A stretch of DNA of 64,000 nt, taken from the NCBI GenBank assembly GCA_049512915.1, contig JBEKWP010000007.1:32197-96196 (forward strand), read 5' to 3'. Position numbers and translations under genes: made by a program. This document shows positions 29,835 to 32,602 of this stretch, piece after piece. Within the stretch, counting starts at the first letter, position 1. Each line of letters starts with the position of its first letter. The notes beneath the pieces were generated by a model. The model was given only the letters and a program-made list of their open reading frames with translations. It was not told the origin of the DNA and ran no database searches. This stretch comes from Candidatus Sulfotelmatobacter sp. GTDB lineage: Bacteria > Acidobacteriota > Terriglobia > Terriglobales > Acidobacteriaceae.

Positions 29835-31177
29835 GATATCAGCTCATTGGCGTAAATCATCGGAGCGCTCCGCTCGAGGTGCGCGAGCGGCTGGCAATCC
29901 CGGAATCGCGCCTGGCCGATGCGTGCCGCGATCTCGCTGCCCACCCCGGAATCGAAGAGGGCATGATCATTTCCACCTGCAACCGGGTGGAACTGGTCAC
30001 TCACACCACCAACGGTTCGGCCGACCTGCGCGGCTTTCTGAACGAACACTTCCAACTCAACTCGGAGGATCTCAATCCCCACCTCTATGAGTTCCGCCAG
30101 AAAGATGCCGTGCGGCATGTCTTCCGCGTAGCTGCGAGCCTCGATTCGATGGTGGTCGGAGAAGCCCAGATTCTTGGCCAGGTAAAAGAGGCTTACGCGA
30201 CGGCGCGCGCCGTTGGGTCAGTTCGCGGCCAGCTTGATCAGCTCTTCACTCGCGCCTTTGCGGTAGCCAAACGGGTGCGCAGCGAGACAGCTGTCGGCTC
30301 GTCTTCGGTTTCTGTCGCCTCGGTTGCGGTGGAACTGGCCAAGAAGATTTTTGGATCACTGCAGGGCAAGAGTGTTTTCATCGTCGGCGCCGGCAAGATG
30401 AGCGAACTCGCTGCCCGCCATCTGATGGCGCACGGCTGCGCCTCGATCTTCGTGGCCAACCGCACGTACGACCGCGCCATCGGGCTGGCGCAGAAGTTCA
30501 ACGGCCAGGCCATTAAATTTGAAGATCTCTACGGCTCTTGCGACCGCGCTGACATCGTTATCACTTCAACCGGCGCGCCTCACGCTATTTTCCGGCGCGA
30601 GCATGGCGAGCAATTCCTTGCCCGACGCAAGAACCGGCCCATGTTTTTCATCGACATCGCAGTGCCCCGCGACGTCTCGCCGGAGATGGCCAAACTCGAC
30701 GGCATCTTCGCCTACGACATCGACGATTTGCAGCAGGCCGTCAGCAGTCACGTTGCCGACCGGCGTCACGAAGCCGAGCTGGCCGAAGCGATCATCGCAA
30801 GCGAAATTGACCGTTTCGAAGCCCGCCTGCACACCCTCGATGTGGTTCCGACCATCGTGTCGTTGCAGGATCATCTGGAAACCATTCGCCAGGCGGAAAT
30901 CGACCGGGTGCGCAGCCGCATGGGCCCGTTGACCCCGGACCAGGAATTGGCGGTCGAAGCCCTGACCCGCGGCATCATCAACAAAGTCATGCACACCCCA
31001 ATCACCACGTTAAAGACCGCCGCCCGCGACTCCGAGGCAACCACCGTAATCGATGTCGTACGAAGACTCTTTAATCTTCACGAGAAAGAAAAAGGGCGAG
31101 CATTGCAGGCTGAGGATAGAGAGGCGTCGGGCAAGAATTCGCAAGACAGAGGGATGAAATCGCGCCGCGATGCCTAA
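29831..31177 (+). CDS. hemA: glutamyl-tRNA reductase
   Basis: MRYQLIGVNHRSAPLEVRERLAI, the catalytic region STCNRVEL, and the NADPH motif VFIVGAGKMSELAARHL. The start was set to ATG 29831, overlapping the previous stop. Confidence 0.92.
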   Translation: MRYQLIGVNHRSAPLEVRERLAIPESRLADACRDLAAHPGIEEGMIISTCNRVELVTHTTNGSADLRGFLNEHFQLNSEDLNPHLYEFRQKDAVRHVFRVAASLDSMVVGEAQILGQVKEAYATARAVGSVRGQLDQLFTRAFAVAKRVRSETAVGSSSVSVASVAVELAKKIFGSLQGKSVFIVGAGKMSELAARHLMAHGCASIFVANRTYDRAIGLAQKFNGQAIKFEDLYGSCDRADIVITSTGAPHAIFRREHGEQFLARRKNRPMFFIDIAVPRDVSPEMAKLDGIFAYDIDDLQQAVSSHVADRRHEAELAEAIIASEIDRFEARLHTLDVVPTIVSLQDHLETIRQAEIDRVRSRMGPLTPDQELAVEALTRGIINKVMHTPITTLKTAARDSEATTVIDVVRRLFNLHEKEKGRALQAEDREASGKNSQDRGMKSRRDA

Positions 31178-31259
31178 CCTCCGCATCGGCTCCCGTGGCT
31201 CGCAGCTTGCCCTCTGGCAAGGAAACATATTTCTGCCCTGCTGTGTGCGCGCGATATAA
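31170..31259 (+). pseudogene. duplicated 5' fragment of hemC (truncated, 29 codons)
   Basis: 31170-31219 matches 31646-31695 at 49 of 50 positions, with degenerate similarity to 31236/31713. It encodes [17 protein letters not shown], then diverges and stops. Its ATG overlaps the hemA stop (ATGCCTAA). Confidence 0.8.
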
Positions 31260-31371
31260 ATGGATGAGAACGGCCAAGACCATAATGGAACGACTTTTTT
31301 CGCTCTTCGAACGTATTCGGAGGATGTGGTCAAGTCGCCGTAGTACGCTGGTCTTGCTCGAGCGGGGCTTC

Positions 31372-31465
31372 GGAGAGTACTACCAGTGTGGGTACTGGGC
31401 CGCGCTTGAGAACCGTGGGTCGCGGCTGCTCGCAGCCGCGAGGGGTCCGAATCCCTTACTCTCCG
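31372..31465 (+). tRNA. non-canonical tRNA(Sec)-like / allo-tRNA-like gene, anticodon GAG
   Basis: Hand-folded cloverleaf. Acceptor is 31372-31379/31457-31464 (8 bp, all Watson-Crick). D-stem is 31383-31388/31393-31398 (6 bp including one G-U) with the 4-nt loop TGGG. Anticodon stem is 31400-31404/31414-31418 with loop TTGAGAA and anticodon GAG at 31408-31410. Variable arm is 31421-31428/31433-31440 (8 bp, loop CTCG). T-stem is 31442-31445/31453-31456 with T-loop TCCGAAT. The discriminator is G at 31465 and CCA is not encoded. Confidence 0.6.
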
Positions 31466-31585
31466 CCGCCTTACGCGATCCACGGGAGGTTAAAACCTGC
31501 TTAGCCTGCGCATGGTTCTTGACGGACACGTCACCAAATGGTACTTTGAAGGTGGTTCTCAAGCGCGGCACAGCACGAATTTTCC

Positions 31586-31617
31586 AAGGCGGCCTAGTCG
31601 GCCGCCTTTCGCTTTTG
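31586..31617 (+). terminator. intrinsic terminator inside the hemA-hemC insert
   Basis: 9-bp perfect stem AAGGCGGCC(31586-31594)/GGCCGCCTT(31600-31608) with loop TAGTC, followed by TCGCTTTTG. Confidence 0.7.
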
Positions 31618-31645
31618 CGCGATATTCCGCCTCGGATCGTTCAAC

Positions 31646-32602
31646 ATGCCTAGCCTCCGCATCGGCTCCCGTGGCTCGCAGCTTGCCCTCTGGCAGGCGA
31701 ACCACATTTCTGCTCTTCTCCGGGCACGCGGATACGAAGTCGAAATCGAAATCATTCACACTACCGGTGACAAGATCACCGACGTCCCCCTGGCCATGGT
31801 CGGCACCAAGGGGGGACTTGGCAAAGGGATTTTCACAAAAGAGATTGAGGAAGCCCTCGCCGCCGGCAGCGTGGACCTCGCCGTGCATTCGTTGAAAGAC
31901 TTACCCACGGAACTCTCTCCGGGATTCGAACTCCCAGCGATCACGGAGAGACAAGATCCGCGCGATGCTTTCTGTTCGGTGGTTTATTCGAAGGTTGAAG
32001 ATCTTCCCCATCACGCGCACGTAGGCACCTCCAGTCTGCGCCGTCAAGCGCAACTGAAAGCCATCCGCCCCGACCTCGATATACACCCGCTCCGCGGCAA
32101 TGTCGACACGCGCCTGCGCAAACTCGAGCAAGGAGAATACGACGCCATCATTCTCGCCTCGGCGGGCCTGAAGCGTCTGGGCAAAACGGAATTGATTAAA
32201 CAGATCATTCCCTCCGAGATCATGTGTCCCGCGGCCGGGCAGGGAGCACTCGGCATCGAAATCCGCGAAGGCGACTCGTTCACGCGCCAGCAACTCGTAT
32301 TTCTGAACGATGCCTCCGCCCGCGCCACCACTACCTGCGAGCGCGCGCTGCTCAACCGCCTCGGTGGAGGATGCCAGGTTCCCATCGGTGCCTTGGCGGA
32401 AATTCGCAGCGGCAAACTACATCTCGATGCCATCGTGGCCGATCCCGACGGCTCGAGGCTTCTTCGCGAATCCCGCGACGGCGACCTCAATGATCCTGAA
32501 CAACTCGGTAATGCGGTCGGCGAAACCCTGCTCGACCGCGGTGGCGACGAGATACTCGAAGCCGTCTACGGCCGCGGCCTCGCCGTCCCGCCCCAACCAT
32601 GA
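31646..32602 (+). CDS. hemC: porphobilinogen deaminase (hydroxymethylbilane synthase)
   Basis: [39 protein letters not shown], and the cofactor-cysteine region [11 protein letters not shown]. Confidence 0.92.

Follow-up and report, generated by a model that had tools for sequence, protein, structure and literature searches.

In the pyrBI leader of E. coli, translation through an intrinsic terminator allows read-through. RNA-antitoxin systems include type I, and type VIII with its RNA toxin, and bacteria also have small RNAs that carry a 5'-seed and end at a terminator. Among tRNAs, the (8/4) allo-tRNA-GAG of an acidobacterium, Silvibacterium bohemicum, places Ser at CUC codons and is lethal to E. 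coli (Mukai et al. 2017, PMC5389517), and the same authors suspect many allo-tRNAs of having a regulatory role or a link to toxin-antitoxin systems (PMC5389517). The class as a whole is unexplained: some of its members mis-decode and kill E. coli, and others seem inactive.

Here we describe a 476-bp unit lying between hemA and hemC in a 64-kb stretch of DNA from a Candidatus Sulfotelmatobacter genome (the window, analysed as a whole). The unit is an old cassette that belongs to the Ca. Sulfotelmatobacter group (peat-soil Acidobacteria) alone and occupies a single chromosomal site, immediately before hemC. It sets an allo-tRNA-type gene in a fixed, conserved context beside a predicted partner RNA complementary to the anticodon arm, and so offers a concrete hypothesis, open to testing, of how such a tRNA might be tolerated or put to use by a cell. 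We lean towards a reading in which a relay ORF preserves hemA-hemC coupling and masks the terminator, with an allo-tRNA/antisense-RNA pair of putative function embedded in it. The features are as follows.

29831-31177, + strand: hemA (glutamyl-tRNA reductase); Pfam GlutR_N, Shikimate_DH and GlutR_dimer.
31170-31259, + strand: left repeat (hemC'), a decayed copy of the hemC 5' end; near-exact over 31170-31226, gapped similarity to 31253.
31264-31653, + strand: relay ORF (orfX); its stop, TAG 31651-31653, overlaps the hemC ATG.
31278-31292, + strand: conserved block GACCATAATGGAACG with the relay-ORF start codon; all positions but one 81-100% conserved in 52 cassettes.
31340-31370, + strand: 5' block of the tRNA-like gene; mostly 87-100% conserved, two positions 60-79%.
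31371-31465, + strand: tRNA-Sec-like gene of allo-tRNA type; Rfam tRNA-Sec match (38 bits, E=6e-6) and cloverleaf minimum free energy (MFE) fold.
31472-31492, + strand: 3' trailer block, conserved across cassettes; RNAalifold.
31519-31547, + strand: P2, a putative internal promoter of sigma-70 type (TTGACG, 17 nt, (TGG)TACTTT), from conservation in 52 cassettes.
31554-31617, + strand: predicted RNA of ~64 nt from P2 (seed, linker, terminator hairpin), from the inverted repeat, seed conservation and duplex energy.
31586-31616, + strand: intrinsic terminator, a 9-bp GC-rich hairpin and T-run, from a terminator scan (31586-31608 plus the T-run).
31646-32602, + strand: hemC (porphobilinogen deaminase); Pfam PF01379 and PF03900.

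The hemA-hemC junction and its direct repeat

The 5' end of hemC is present twice. A repeat search returned a direct repeat of 57 nt at 93% identity and a spacing of 476 (31170-31226 and 31646-31702), direct comparison of its first 50 nt gave 49/50 identities with the single mismatch, at position 8, separating TAA in the left copy from TAG in the right one, and gapped blastn extended the similarity to 85 columns at 87% (31170-31253 and 31646-31730). The initial annotation had put the duplication at 67 bp, a reasonable middle between 57 nt and 85 columns, and had taken the right copy for the intact hemC start, which is upheld by the two Pfam domains of the gene whose first ~85 nt it forms. The left copy opens with ATGCCTAA, within which TAA 31175-31177 is the hemA stop, and it forms a 29-aa mini-ORF that starts on the overlap with that stop and ends at 31257-31259. 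On inspection the likely start of hemA itself is ATG 29831, which overlaps the stop of the upstream gene as ATGA; HemA of relatives is 434 aa long.

Both empty and filled junctions were found among 80 related Ca. Sulfotelmatobacter-like genomes: the hemA stop overlaps the hemC start in 48, and 32 are filled. Most of the window's closest relatives (L001, L002, L003, L010, L023, L029 and L033) have the exact ATGCCTAA/G overlap, and the earlier proposal that a translationally coupled hemA/hemC overlap was the ancestral state is borne out by these 48 genomes. hemC has no room for a promoter of its own and no obvious ribosome-binding site. Other genomes carry other cargo at the same junction (a UDG-family gene, a DUF5615/PIN-like ORF, Acido-Lenti-1 RNA), so that small genes and RNAs have landed here repeatedly in this abundant peatland lineage.

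Repeats in metagenome assemblies always carry some risk of a chimeric contig and a false duplication, and beyond this general risk nothing points to an artefact. That explanation is already refuted and its probability is negligible, given that L118, a strain 99.64% identical and assembled independently from a metagenome, has the same structure and is collinear without gaps over 5784 nt, and that ~80 other assemblies have homologous arrangements.

In relatives the left copy reaches ~95-110 nt (95 nt at 92.6% in L013), and 10 further genome loci have a homologous left copy, 59-95 nt long and ~478 nt ahead of hemC. Similarity between left and right copies is graded among genomes, from 78 to 98%, and a sharp identical core is not seen; in some relatives (L015, L020, L058 and L075) and in the V1 variants the core is present without any left repeat. 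The two copies within a genome resemble each other more than copies compared across genomes (p=0.013), with 0.94 in the window against a cross-genome maximum of 0.90. From these comparisons, the near-perfect repeat of this genome seems better explained by slow decay and gene conversion than by a recent insertion.

Distribution and age of the cassette

Among species the cassette is polymorphic, being absent from ~60%, present in ~20% and in the rest replaced or accompanied by other small genes, and its distribution on the tree is scattered. Its position is constant: 54/54 metagenome matches to the tRNA-like gene lie directly upstream of hemC, as do all of the divergent ORF homologues that were checked; covariance-model matches come one per cassette locus, with none elsewhere in 828 kb of related loci and the 64-kb window; and the tRNA-like gene stands at a near-fixed distance from the hemC start in all of ~80 carrying assemblies. 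The free-site distance is 0.317 for the cassette and 0.214 for the flanks, and 0.089 for both in the sister pair of the window and L004. The unconstrained positions of the cassette have diverged at least as far as the flanking genes, and the insertion is therefore old.

The initial annotation had compared the insert to an integrative element and raised the prospect of a mobile, multi-copy unit. This did not hold: the insert is single copy, with no second copy elsewhere in the 64-kb window, occupies one site only in ~80 assemblies and has diverged as its hosts have. An origin as the remnant of an integrative element, or as a miniature one (CIME-like), that entered the hemC 5' end by site-specific recombination, with attL/attR repeats and an integrase encoded elsewhere mobilising it in trans, would account for direct repeats that rebuild the interrupted gene end, for the empty sites of close relatives and for the other cargo found at this junction elsewhere, and a link of allo-tRNAs to mobile and toxin-antitoxin contexts is on record (PMC5389517). 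We nevertheless consider this origin improbable and largely refuted, because metagenome, homologue and covariance-model searches found no other insertion site; because no integrase or recombinase is present among the Pfam-profiled genes within ~3 kb (window and L137-L141) or the representative insert ORFs; because cassette divergence equals or exceeds host-gene divergence, with no sign of recent transfer; because the repeat decays gradually and some variants have no left copy; and because a selected frame, described below, integrates the cassette into operon translation.

A relay of open frames from hemA to hemC

In the window the relay ORF starts at ATG 31264, 4 nt past the hemC' stop, with ATG 31285 as the conserved start column. 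In relatives the upstream ORF, whether hemA or hemC', stops 7 nt before the GACCATAATGGAACG block or overlapping it. Stop and start codons along the chain are spaced by -8 to +13 nt, and the chain always ends on the hemC overlap; translation of the window confirmed the order of hemA stop, hemC' mini-ORF, relay ORF and a stop overlapping the hemC ATG.

The relay frame is open in 50/52 unique cassettes, with lengths of only 357, 360, 363, 366 or 369 nt, and sporadic stop cells number 7 in frame 0 (all in 2 frameshifted sequences) against 42 and 84 in the other frames. Its pN/pS, however, is 0.7-0.9, the same as in control frames and to be compared with 0.06 for hemC; there is no third-position excess, and a Pfam search of the ORF matched no family. 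Judged from these alignments, the frame is shown to be kept open by selection with its amino-acid sequence free to vary.

It was conceivable that the ORF is an ordinary small protein-coding gene (~122 aa) of the hem operon, to which the tRNA-like, promoter-like and terminator-like features are incidental. The near-universal openness of the frame, the restriction to in-frame indels, translational coupling on both sides and the 112 database protein clusters called from the ORF are all in keeping with such a gene, but a pN/pS equal to that of out-of-frame controls, the missing third-position excess and Pfam family, and the coincidence of the blocks invariant at all codon positions with the cloverleaf, the promoter hexamers, the 15-nt antisense match and the terminator make it very improbable. 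The relay ORF is thus an unusually clean case of a frame that is selected open, with its protein drifting freely, across a tRNA gene, a promoter and a terminator. It is relevant to how an operon can take up an insertion and stay translationally coupled, and to what share of database 'hypothetical proteins', here 112 clusters, are not functional proteins.

The terminator sits inside this ORF, 28 nt upstream of the hemC ATG. The expectation of the initial annotation that it would simply uncouple hemA from hemC needs revision: the selected open frame crosses the terminator and ends on the overlap with the hemC ATG, and therefore hemA-hemC coupling would be preserved by the relay.

The tRNA-like gene and its flanking blocks

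The tRNA-like gene, promoter and terminator noted earlier in the cassette are all strongly conserved; variation in the tRNA-like gene, the seed described below and the terminator is 1-6%, with no difference between the three codon positions. The MFE structure of the tRNA-like RNA is the cloverleaf (-54.9 kcal/mol, z=-3.1). Its acceptor has 8 bp (31372-79/31457-64), or 9 bp if C31371-G31465 is counted; the D stem has 6 bp (CCAGUG/UACUGG) and a UGGG tetraloop; the anticodon stem has 5 bp and a C·C mismatch, folding as a 9-nt loop, where a functional allo-tRNA would have 7 nt on a 6-bp stem; the anticodon loop is UU-GAG-AA (U33, A37), with the anticodon GAG at 31408-31410; and the variable arm has a 7-bp stem and a 4-nt loop, and the T stem 4 bp. 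The acceptor branch of allo-tRNAs has 12 bp, arranged 8/4 or 9/3. Here 8 bp + 4 bp fits, with C31371-G31465 allowing 9/4 and A31441-U31457 allowing 8/5, and the helices carry no covariation that would separate these.

The match to a tRNA-Sec-like model, the long D stem with its tetraloop and the long variable arm are features of allo-tRNAs. As a genuine tRNA-Sec (RF01852) the gene was rejected: its 38 bits, and the 41.7 bits of L077, fall below the gathering score of 47, the anticodon is GAG and not UCA, and an ARAGORN scan called no tRNA at this gene.

Across cassettes the gene is 96-100% identical at all codon positions alike, 98% of helix cells are paired and, the sequence being invariant, compensatory base changes occur in none of the helices. 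The canonical T-arm GGUUCGAAUCC is found in 92% of copies. In the window lineage the T-loop carries C in place of the universally conserved U55, and L135 has lost the 5' acceptor strand and kept the remainder of the domain, two cases which argue that selection does not always act on a chargeable tRNA.

The blocks on either side complement both halves of the anticodon arm. In the 5' block, 31357-31370 is complementary to 31397-31410 (D-arm 3' strand, anticodon 5' strand and loop; duplex against shuffles p ~0.05), and RNAalifold gave an alternative helix with pair-preserving variation. In the 3' trailer, CGCGAUCCACGG (31474-31485) is the complement of 31413-31424, which takes in the 3' strand of the anticodon stem and the 5' strand of the variable arm (shuffle p ~0.02). 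The alternative fold with the flanking blocks is predicted at -68.5 kcal/mol, against -66.0 kcal/mol for the cloverleaf.

The putative internal promoter, the predicted small RNA and the terminator

In 52 cassettes TTGAC of the P2 -35 is conserved at 100%, as are T, A and the final T of the -10, with the extended -10 G at 94% and a spacer that varies. A consensus scan did not call P2 (the -10 matches at 3/6), and the extended -10 TG is present. P2 is retained at loci without the tRNA-like gene. The predicted terminator has 7 GC pairs in its 9-bp stem, followed by TTTCGCTTTTG, with stems conserved at ~100% and a variable loop.

The predicted RNA would begin ~7 nt after the -10 with a seed, GGUUCUCAAGCGCGG (31554-31568), that is 94-100% conserved and is the perfect complement of the tRNA-like anticodon stem-loop (31400-31414), with partial complementarity up to 31576. 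The energy of the seed/anticodon-arm duplex, -39.1 kcal/mol, was equalled by 0/1000 shuffles; predicted folding leaves the first ~7 nt of the seed unpaired and the rest less so; and the seed variants of L004, L051 and L050 are wobble-compatible. Because the seed unit is also invariant in L007 and L076, which have no nearby tRNA-like gene, its target may be something other than the tRNA-like RNA. The MFE of the full-length predicted transcript pairs the seed with the anticodon arm in cis, and this modelled pairing fits a purely cis-regulatory leader as well as a trans-acting small RNA.

Such a leader would consist of alternative structures in hemA-hemC mRNA, formed by the tRNA-like domain, its three complementary segments (5' block, trailer and seed) and the terminator, which set terminator read-through or hemC translation in the manner of a riboswitch or attenuator; a free tRNA-like RNA or a trans small RNA would be irrelevant. 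We think this unlikely, though a serious contender. The near-fixed distance from the cassette to the hemC ATG in every assembly, the seed pairing in cis, the complementarity of the flanking blocks with its slightly more stable alternative fold, the L135 variant and the C55 of the window lineage are all consistent with it. It does not explain, however, why an invariant -35 and -10 should be placed exactly for a transcript start at the seed, if there is no separate RNA, or why promoter-seed-terminator units persist where the tRNA-like domain is missing; moreover, the whole 95-nt tRNA shape is conserved, T-arm included, which exceeds the segments needed for alternative pairing, and the flank complementarity is marginally above chance (p 0.02-0.05).

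Proposed model

We return to the favoured reading, a relay ORF with an embedded RNA pair. A single ancient illegitimate joining would have set the core beside a copy of the first ~110 nt of hemC, giving the direct repeat; this one-event origin is a reconstruction, and the variants without a left repeat could be ancestral and not derived. The left repeat would be kept because it acts as the first relay ORF and because gene conversion with hemC now and then homogenises it, and recombination between the repeats could regenerate empty sites. Ribosomes passed on from hemA would translate through the cassette, preserving translational coupling to hemC, and would stop the terminator hairpin from forming on the operon transcript, and the short, untranslated P2 transcript would end at the terminator as a small RNA of ~64 nt. 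This small RNA, or the same segment in cis, would mask the anticodon arm of the tRNA-like RNA which, if unmasked, would insert Ser at Leu CUC/CUU codons by analogy with the experimentally toxic Silvibacterium allo-tRNA(GAG). In this model the ends of the transcript, how the tRNA-like RNA would be processed and charged, and how translation would act on the terminator are all inferred.

In a further-reaching form the proposal is of a chromosomally fixed RNA-RNA 'poison and mask' pair, in which a dedicated small RNA from the cassette sequesters the anticodon arm of an allo-tRNA(GAG) that is charged with Ser and decodes Leu codons, and a relay ORF of free sequence joins the unit to the essential heme-biosynthesis operon, brings ribosomes to hemC and restricts the terminator to the small-RNA transcript. 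We put this forward tentatively, as a possibility that we rather doubt; if true, it would represent a new, tRNA-based class of toxin/antitoxin or regulated-mistranslation module, and a clear natural case of selection for being translated and not for a protein.

Comparison with known systems

As in integrative elements and CIMEs, direct repeats of a target gene end flank the insert, the gene is rebuilt on one side and relatives have empty sites; unlike them, the cassette has no recombinase in the profiled genes, no other sites and no recent spread, and its repeat is graded and sometimes lacks the left copy. A T-box riboswitch was considered and set aside, there being no Rfam T-box match at the gathering or a permissive threshold. 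The two share a leader segment upstream of a terminator that pairs with a tRNA anticodon loop, but here 15-23 nt of complementarity take the place of a codon, Stem I and an antiterminator bulge are missing, and the leader measures only ~90 nt.

With RNA-antitoxin systems and small RNAs the cassette shares a short predicted promoter-to-terminator RNA whose conserved 5' seed has extended complementarity to a neighbouring, potentially toxic RNA, in a compact two-gene unit. It differs in that the putative toxin is a mis-decoding tRNA and not a peptide mRNA, both partners lie on the same strand within an operon, and the unit is not mobile. A type I system in the strict sense was rejected, since the conserved toxic peptide is missing: the relay ORF amino acids are unconstrained (pN/pS ~0.8).

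Like the allo-tRNA-GAG of PMC5389517, the tRNA-like RNA has a 6-bp D stem with a tetraloop, a long variable arm, an extended acceptor with a 4-bp T stem, a G discriminator (in the 8/4 reading), the non-Ser, non-Sec anticodon GAG and an acidobacterial host. It departs from that tRNA in its sixth anticodon-stem pair, a C·C mismatch that gives the 9-nt loop, and in the C at U55 of the window lineage, and from the allo-tRNAs of that study generally in lying inside a translated frame of the hem operon, at a single locus, with a promoter-driven antisense seed; the text of PMC5389517 describes none of these cassette features and has no 'hemA' at a word start.

Finally, the cassette differs from a leader-ORF attenuator of the pyrBI type in that its frame runs to ~120-160 codons, is fed by coupling from hemA and not by its own initiation, and holds a tRNA-like gene and an internal promoter, with no sensing signal identified. 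It resembles one in having an intrinsic terminator within a short translated frame that immediately precedes the regulated gene and a peptide whose sequence is unimportant, and in both cases a ribosome close behind the polymerase would be expected to block the hairpin.

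The duplicated hemC start and its relatives

The region between hemA and hemC is bounded by two genes on the plus strand.

ending with TAA at 31175-31177, plus strand: hemA, glutamyl-tRNA reductase (Pfam GlutR_N, Shikimate_DH, GlutR_dimer)
starting at 31646, plus strand: hemC, intact (PF01379 + PF03900)

A repeat search of the window identified 31170-31226 and 31646-31702 as a direct repeat of 57 nt (93% identity, spacing 476). Compared directly, the copies are identical at 49 of their first 50 nt, and in a gapped blastn alignment the similarity reaches 31253/31730 (85 columns, 87%). 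The left copy (hemC') opens with ATGCCTAA, overlapping the hemA stop, and translates into 29 residues followed by a stop. The duplication of the hemC 5' end that the initial annotation had placed around the insert is thus real, and because the 99.64%-identical strain L118, assembled independently from a metagenome, also has it and is collinear with the window over 5784 nt without gaps, it is not an assembly artefact.

A HemC-based scan with one genome per species yielded 80 related loci with HemC identities of 83-92% (76% in locus L064), those closest to the window coming from Candidatus Sulfotelmatobacter-like acidobacteria. In 48 of them the stop of hemA shares nucleotides with the hemC start or lies immediately next to it, mostly as TGATG, and the majority of the loci closest to the window (L001-L003, L010, L023, L029, L033) show exactly the ATGCCTAA/G overlap; the initial annotation was therefore right to take a hemA/hemC overlap as ancestral. 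Intervening sequence is found in 32 of the 80. The homologous core (the insert, or cassette, minus its left copy) occurs with the tRNA-like gene in 16 loci, one being L004, sister to the window, whose core is 93% identical; 10 more genome loci have a hemC 5' pseudo-copy ~478 nt before the true hemC start, irrespective of the upstream gene. In four loci (L015, L020, L058, L075) the core is present and the left copy missing altogether.

Left copies are slightly nearer to the hemC of their own genome than to those of other genomes (0.864 vs 0.839, p=0.013), the window's left copy scoring 0.94 against its own hemC and 0.90 in the best cross-genome comparison. Given this excess of within-genome over cross-genome identity, the near-perfect 50 nt are better explained by gene conversion from time to time than by a recent insertion. 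Because all left copies in the alignment are joined to the core at one common junction, their origin may be traced to a single ancient event in which hemC, at about nt 110, became attached to the core while the other side was anchored by homology to hemC. Such a joining could have come about, for example, when incoming DNA underwent homology-facilitated illegitimate recombination. Variants without a left copy would be deletions that brought hemA into fusion with the pseudo-copy's end; the reverse order, with those variants first, is also possible.

Unrelated cargo occupies the same junction in L012, L025, L034, L037, L041, L045, L050, L051, L052, L053, L055, L061, L065, L068 and L077, and a further small RNA, the known sRNA Acido-Lenti-1, is found there in L007 and L077.

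UDG-superfamily gene (PF03167)
DUF5615/PIN-like ORF, 118-120 aa, a weak match
membrane protein, 185-190 aa, coupled on both sides
small secreted protein, 139 aa
large minus-strand gene for a 754-aa membrane protein
L007:3721-3766, minus strand: Acido-Lenti-1 sRNA (RF01687), 58-59 bits against a gathering score of 37, 4 nt after the hemA stop
L077:2280-2325, minus strand: Acido-Lenti-1 sRNA (RF01687), 58-59 bits against a gathering score of 37, 55 nt after the hemA stop

Since other species carry unrelated cargo there, the junction is a recurrent variable spot, a hotspot of small-gene gain and loss. The operon has a second variable spot downstream, where a DUF4442 (thioesterase-like) ORF (window 32310-33128) separates hemC from an FMN_bind_2 gene; the related loci L137 and L138 lack this ORF and have FMN_bind_2 directly after hemC.

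Fixed position and age of the cassette

The insert had initially been likened to a mobile or integrative element. When metagenome contigs were scanned with the tRNA-like anticodon arm as an exact pattern, 54 loci were recovered, and on every contig of sufficient length the pattern followed hemA and preceded the hemC ATG by 237-249 nt. The order hemA (or a membrane protein)-ORF-hemC, with the same 8-nt overlap, recurs around the cassette ORF's most distant homologues in protein databases. Our covariance model of the tRNA-like RNA (R1) detected exactly one copy per cassette locus in 828 kb of related loci and one in the 64-kb window, and gave no match in the empty or otherwise filled loci of the 828 kb; blastn revealed no second insert or tRNA-like gene copy in the window. 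With filters off, R1 also matched window 63520-63615 (plus strand; 18 bits, rough E about 0.007), inside ORFs and with no Rfam support, probably by chance.

Pfam profiling of the genes flanking the cassette in the window and in loci L137-L141 revealed no integrase. Where the cassette is under no RNA-level constraint, the mean difference between cassettes is 0.317, compared with 0.214 for flanking hemA/hemC DNA, and in the sister pair of the window and L004 the distance is 0.089 in cassette free sites and flanks alike. Carriers of the cassette are dispersed over a hemA+hemC tree, in which the window and L004 are nested in a clade of empty sites. Neither the divergence comparison nor the tree gives a sign of recent spread, and with a single site, no integrase in the profiled flanks and divergence not below that of the flanks, mobility is unsupported. 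The simplest reading is that the cassette is old, that it was inherited together with its flanks and that it has been lost on many occasions; recombination between the repeats or allelic replacement would account for the losses.

Cassette anatomy and the tRNA-like gene

We read the anatomy of the cassette from 52 non-redundant examples, in which the following modules are conserved.

a, 31278-31292, plus strand: GACCATAATGGAACG
b, 31340-31370, plus strand: conserved block
c, 31371-31465, plus strand: tRNA-like gene, about 98-100% identical throughout, including the loops
d, 31472-31492, plus strand: trailer block
e: putative internal promoter, TTGAC (100%), 17 nt, then T-A-n-n-n-T (its 3 diagnostic positions 100%), with a TG-type extended -10 before it
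f, 31553-31568, plus strand: TGGTTCTCAAGCGCGG, the seed, 94-100%, beginning about 7 nt after the -10
g, 31586-31616, plus strand: terminator, stems invariant and loop variable, 28 nt before the hemC ATG

With the terminator only 28 nt from the hemC ATG, there is no room for a further promoter. A second promoter before the tRNA-like gene (CATAAT, 31281-31286) was considered and rejected: its -35 region is unconserved, and the context of the relay-ORF start fits the motif better. RNAalifold predicted no structure in the 5' region (31278-31345) or the post-tRNA region (31466-31556). The trailer segment 31475-31488 is complementary at 13 of 14 positions to hemC nt 21-34 in both copies (31190-31203, 31666-31679), which may be chance, as most relatives have an extra mismatch.

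ARAGORN found no tRNA or tmRNA in the whole window, and Rfam at gathering thresholds gave no match in the 64 kb. The Rfam tRNA-Sec model does match the tRNA-like gene with 38 bits (E=6e-6), below its gathering score of 47, and the alignment shows a 6-bp D stem with a tetraloop and a long variable arm. The minimum free energy (MFE) structure is a cloverleaf (z=-3.1), and an 8/4 cloverleaf is paired in 98% of alignment cells; compensatory changes are absent, and because the stems are invariant the fold has no covariation support. The anticodon stem can be read as 6 bp, typical of tRNA-Sec and allo-tRNAs, with C·C as the sixth pair, the loop UU-GAG-AA and the anticodon GAG.

U55 of the T-loop is near-universal. 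The T-loop at window 31447 is UCCGAAU, with C at this position, in the window, L004 and L027, and UUCGAAU in 92% of cassettes; this C55 hints at relaxed tRNA-type constraint in the window's lineage. In the cassettes of L135 (at 933-1275) and L136 (protein P0109), an in-frame deletion of 42 nt has taken out the block before the tRNA-like gene together with the gene's 5' acceptor strand, leaving the D, anticodon, variable and T arms, promoter, seed and terminator intact. C55 and the loss of the acceptor strand in L135 call for caution in assuming a working adaptor.

The gene agrees with the published description of acidobacterial allo-tRNAs, among which the (8/4) allo-tRNA-GAG of Silvibacterium bohemicum placed Ser at CUC codons and, when induced, was lethal to E. 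coli (PMC5389517). Many others are apparently inactive, and regulatory or toxin-antitoxin-linked roles have been suggested for them (PMC5389517).

The relay reading frame

From a conserved ATG at 31285 (the window also has ATG 31264), one frame runs through the tRNA-like gene, promoter, seed and terminator to a TAA or TAG overlapping the hemC ATG. This frame stays open in 50 of the 52 cassettes, with lengths of 357, 360, 363, 366 and 369 nt only, and each other frame is open in at most one sequence. Sporadic stops fall in 7 cells of frame 0, all in two frameshifted sequences, against 42 and 84 in the other forward frames, the mutational opportunity for stops being similar across the three. Its pN/pS of 0.7-0.9 equals that of out-of-frame controls (hemC, 0.06), there is no third-position excess, and Pfam detected no domain in the ORF; on pN/pS and the absence of domains we rejected a real protein product. 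A frame that is open in 50/52 cassettes with pN/pS at control level is under selection to stay translatable, whatever protein it encodes.

Upstream of this frame, each stop lies within -8 to +13 nt of the next start; the automatic walk along the ORF chain takes the nearest start and includes some spurious intermediate ORFs, and we relied on its end points and on the translation-checked chain of the window. There the hemA stop lies within ATG 31170, the hemC' mini-ORF runs to 31259, and after a 4-nt gap ATG 31264 leads to TAG 31653, overlapping the hemC ATG at 31646. Because a ccsA-like (cytochrome-c-assembly-like) gene and hemA overlap as ATGA (window 29831-29834), the whole string of ccsA-like gene, hemA, cassette where present, and hemC is translationally coupled.

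The relay frame accounts for 112 clusters of 'hypothetical proteins' in public databases (P0001-P0112), which probably have no function as proteins. Several genomes have this frame fused in phase with the hemC' fragment or even with the gene upstream, which gives rise to entries of ~160 aa; two clusters score as PF01379 and bear a porphobilinogen deaminase annotation that stems from the fused hemC pseudo-copy.

Predicted pairing of the seed with the anticodon arm

Block f can pair without mismatch with the anticodon stem-loop of the tRNA-like gene (31400-31414), with partial pairing up to 23 nt (inverted repeat I1). The duplex reaches -39.1 kcal/mol, equalled by 0 of 1000 dinucleotide shuffles, and the MFE structure of the full transcript pairs seed with anticodon arm. 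Rare seed variants (L004, L051, L050) can still pair through G·U, and covariation for the pairing was absent even in the most divergent members. Allowing up to 3 mismatches, the seed has 6 matches in the window (3.8 expected), exact only at the two known sites. A role for the seed as antiterminator was rejected, since the leader MFE retains the terminator and leaves the first ~9 nt of the seed unpaired.

Promoter-seed-terminator units with no tRNA-like gene nearby occur at L007:3860-4001, at L076:3860-4001 and in the last ~160 nt of the L051 insert. Those persisting in L007 and L076 are 70% identical to each other, with the seed exact in both. A second unit in L050 (insert nt 1621-1752), far upstream of a full cassette, is 98.5% identical to that of L051.

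The main rival to masking of the anticodon arm by the seed is a purely cis-regulatory leader. Window 31357-31370 is complementary to the 5' half of the anticodon arm (31397-31410; p about 0.05 vs shuffles) and 31474-31485 to its 3' half (31413-31424; p about 0.02), and this pairing permits another fold, not a cloverleaf, whose energy is close to that of the cloverleaf (-68.5 vs -66.0 kcal/mol). Weak but suggestive, and only marginally above shuffles, the complementarity of these conserved flanking blocks to both halves would suit such a leader as well as masking by the seed.

Proposed mechanism and relation to known systems

The locus is a conserved, site-bound composite in which a relay ORF threads through an allo-tRNA-type gene and an antisense seed unit. 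From its parts, their conservation and fixed position, the seed/anticodon complementarity and the open, unconstrained frame, all observed directly, we infer how masking by the seed might operate. Ribosomes passed on from hemA would translate across the cassette and reinitiate at hemC and, trailing the polymerase, would block the terminator hairpin on the operon transcript. Transcripts begun at the internal promoter do not include the relay start; they would go untranslated and end at the terminator, the predicted product being an ~64-nt RNA with its first ~7 nt unpaired and the terminator hairpin following. Either this RNA or its counterpart segment in cis could then mask the anticodon arm of the tRNA-like RNA.

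Our literature search found no description of this combination or of its hemA-hemC link. In leader-ORF attenuators such as that of pyrBI, a ribosome following the polymerase prevents formation of the terminator hairpin, and the putative ribosome-blocked terminator of the cassette resembles these. The individual parts of the locus resemble known things: allo-tRNAs, sRNAs with a 5' seed and leader-ORF attenuators.
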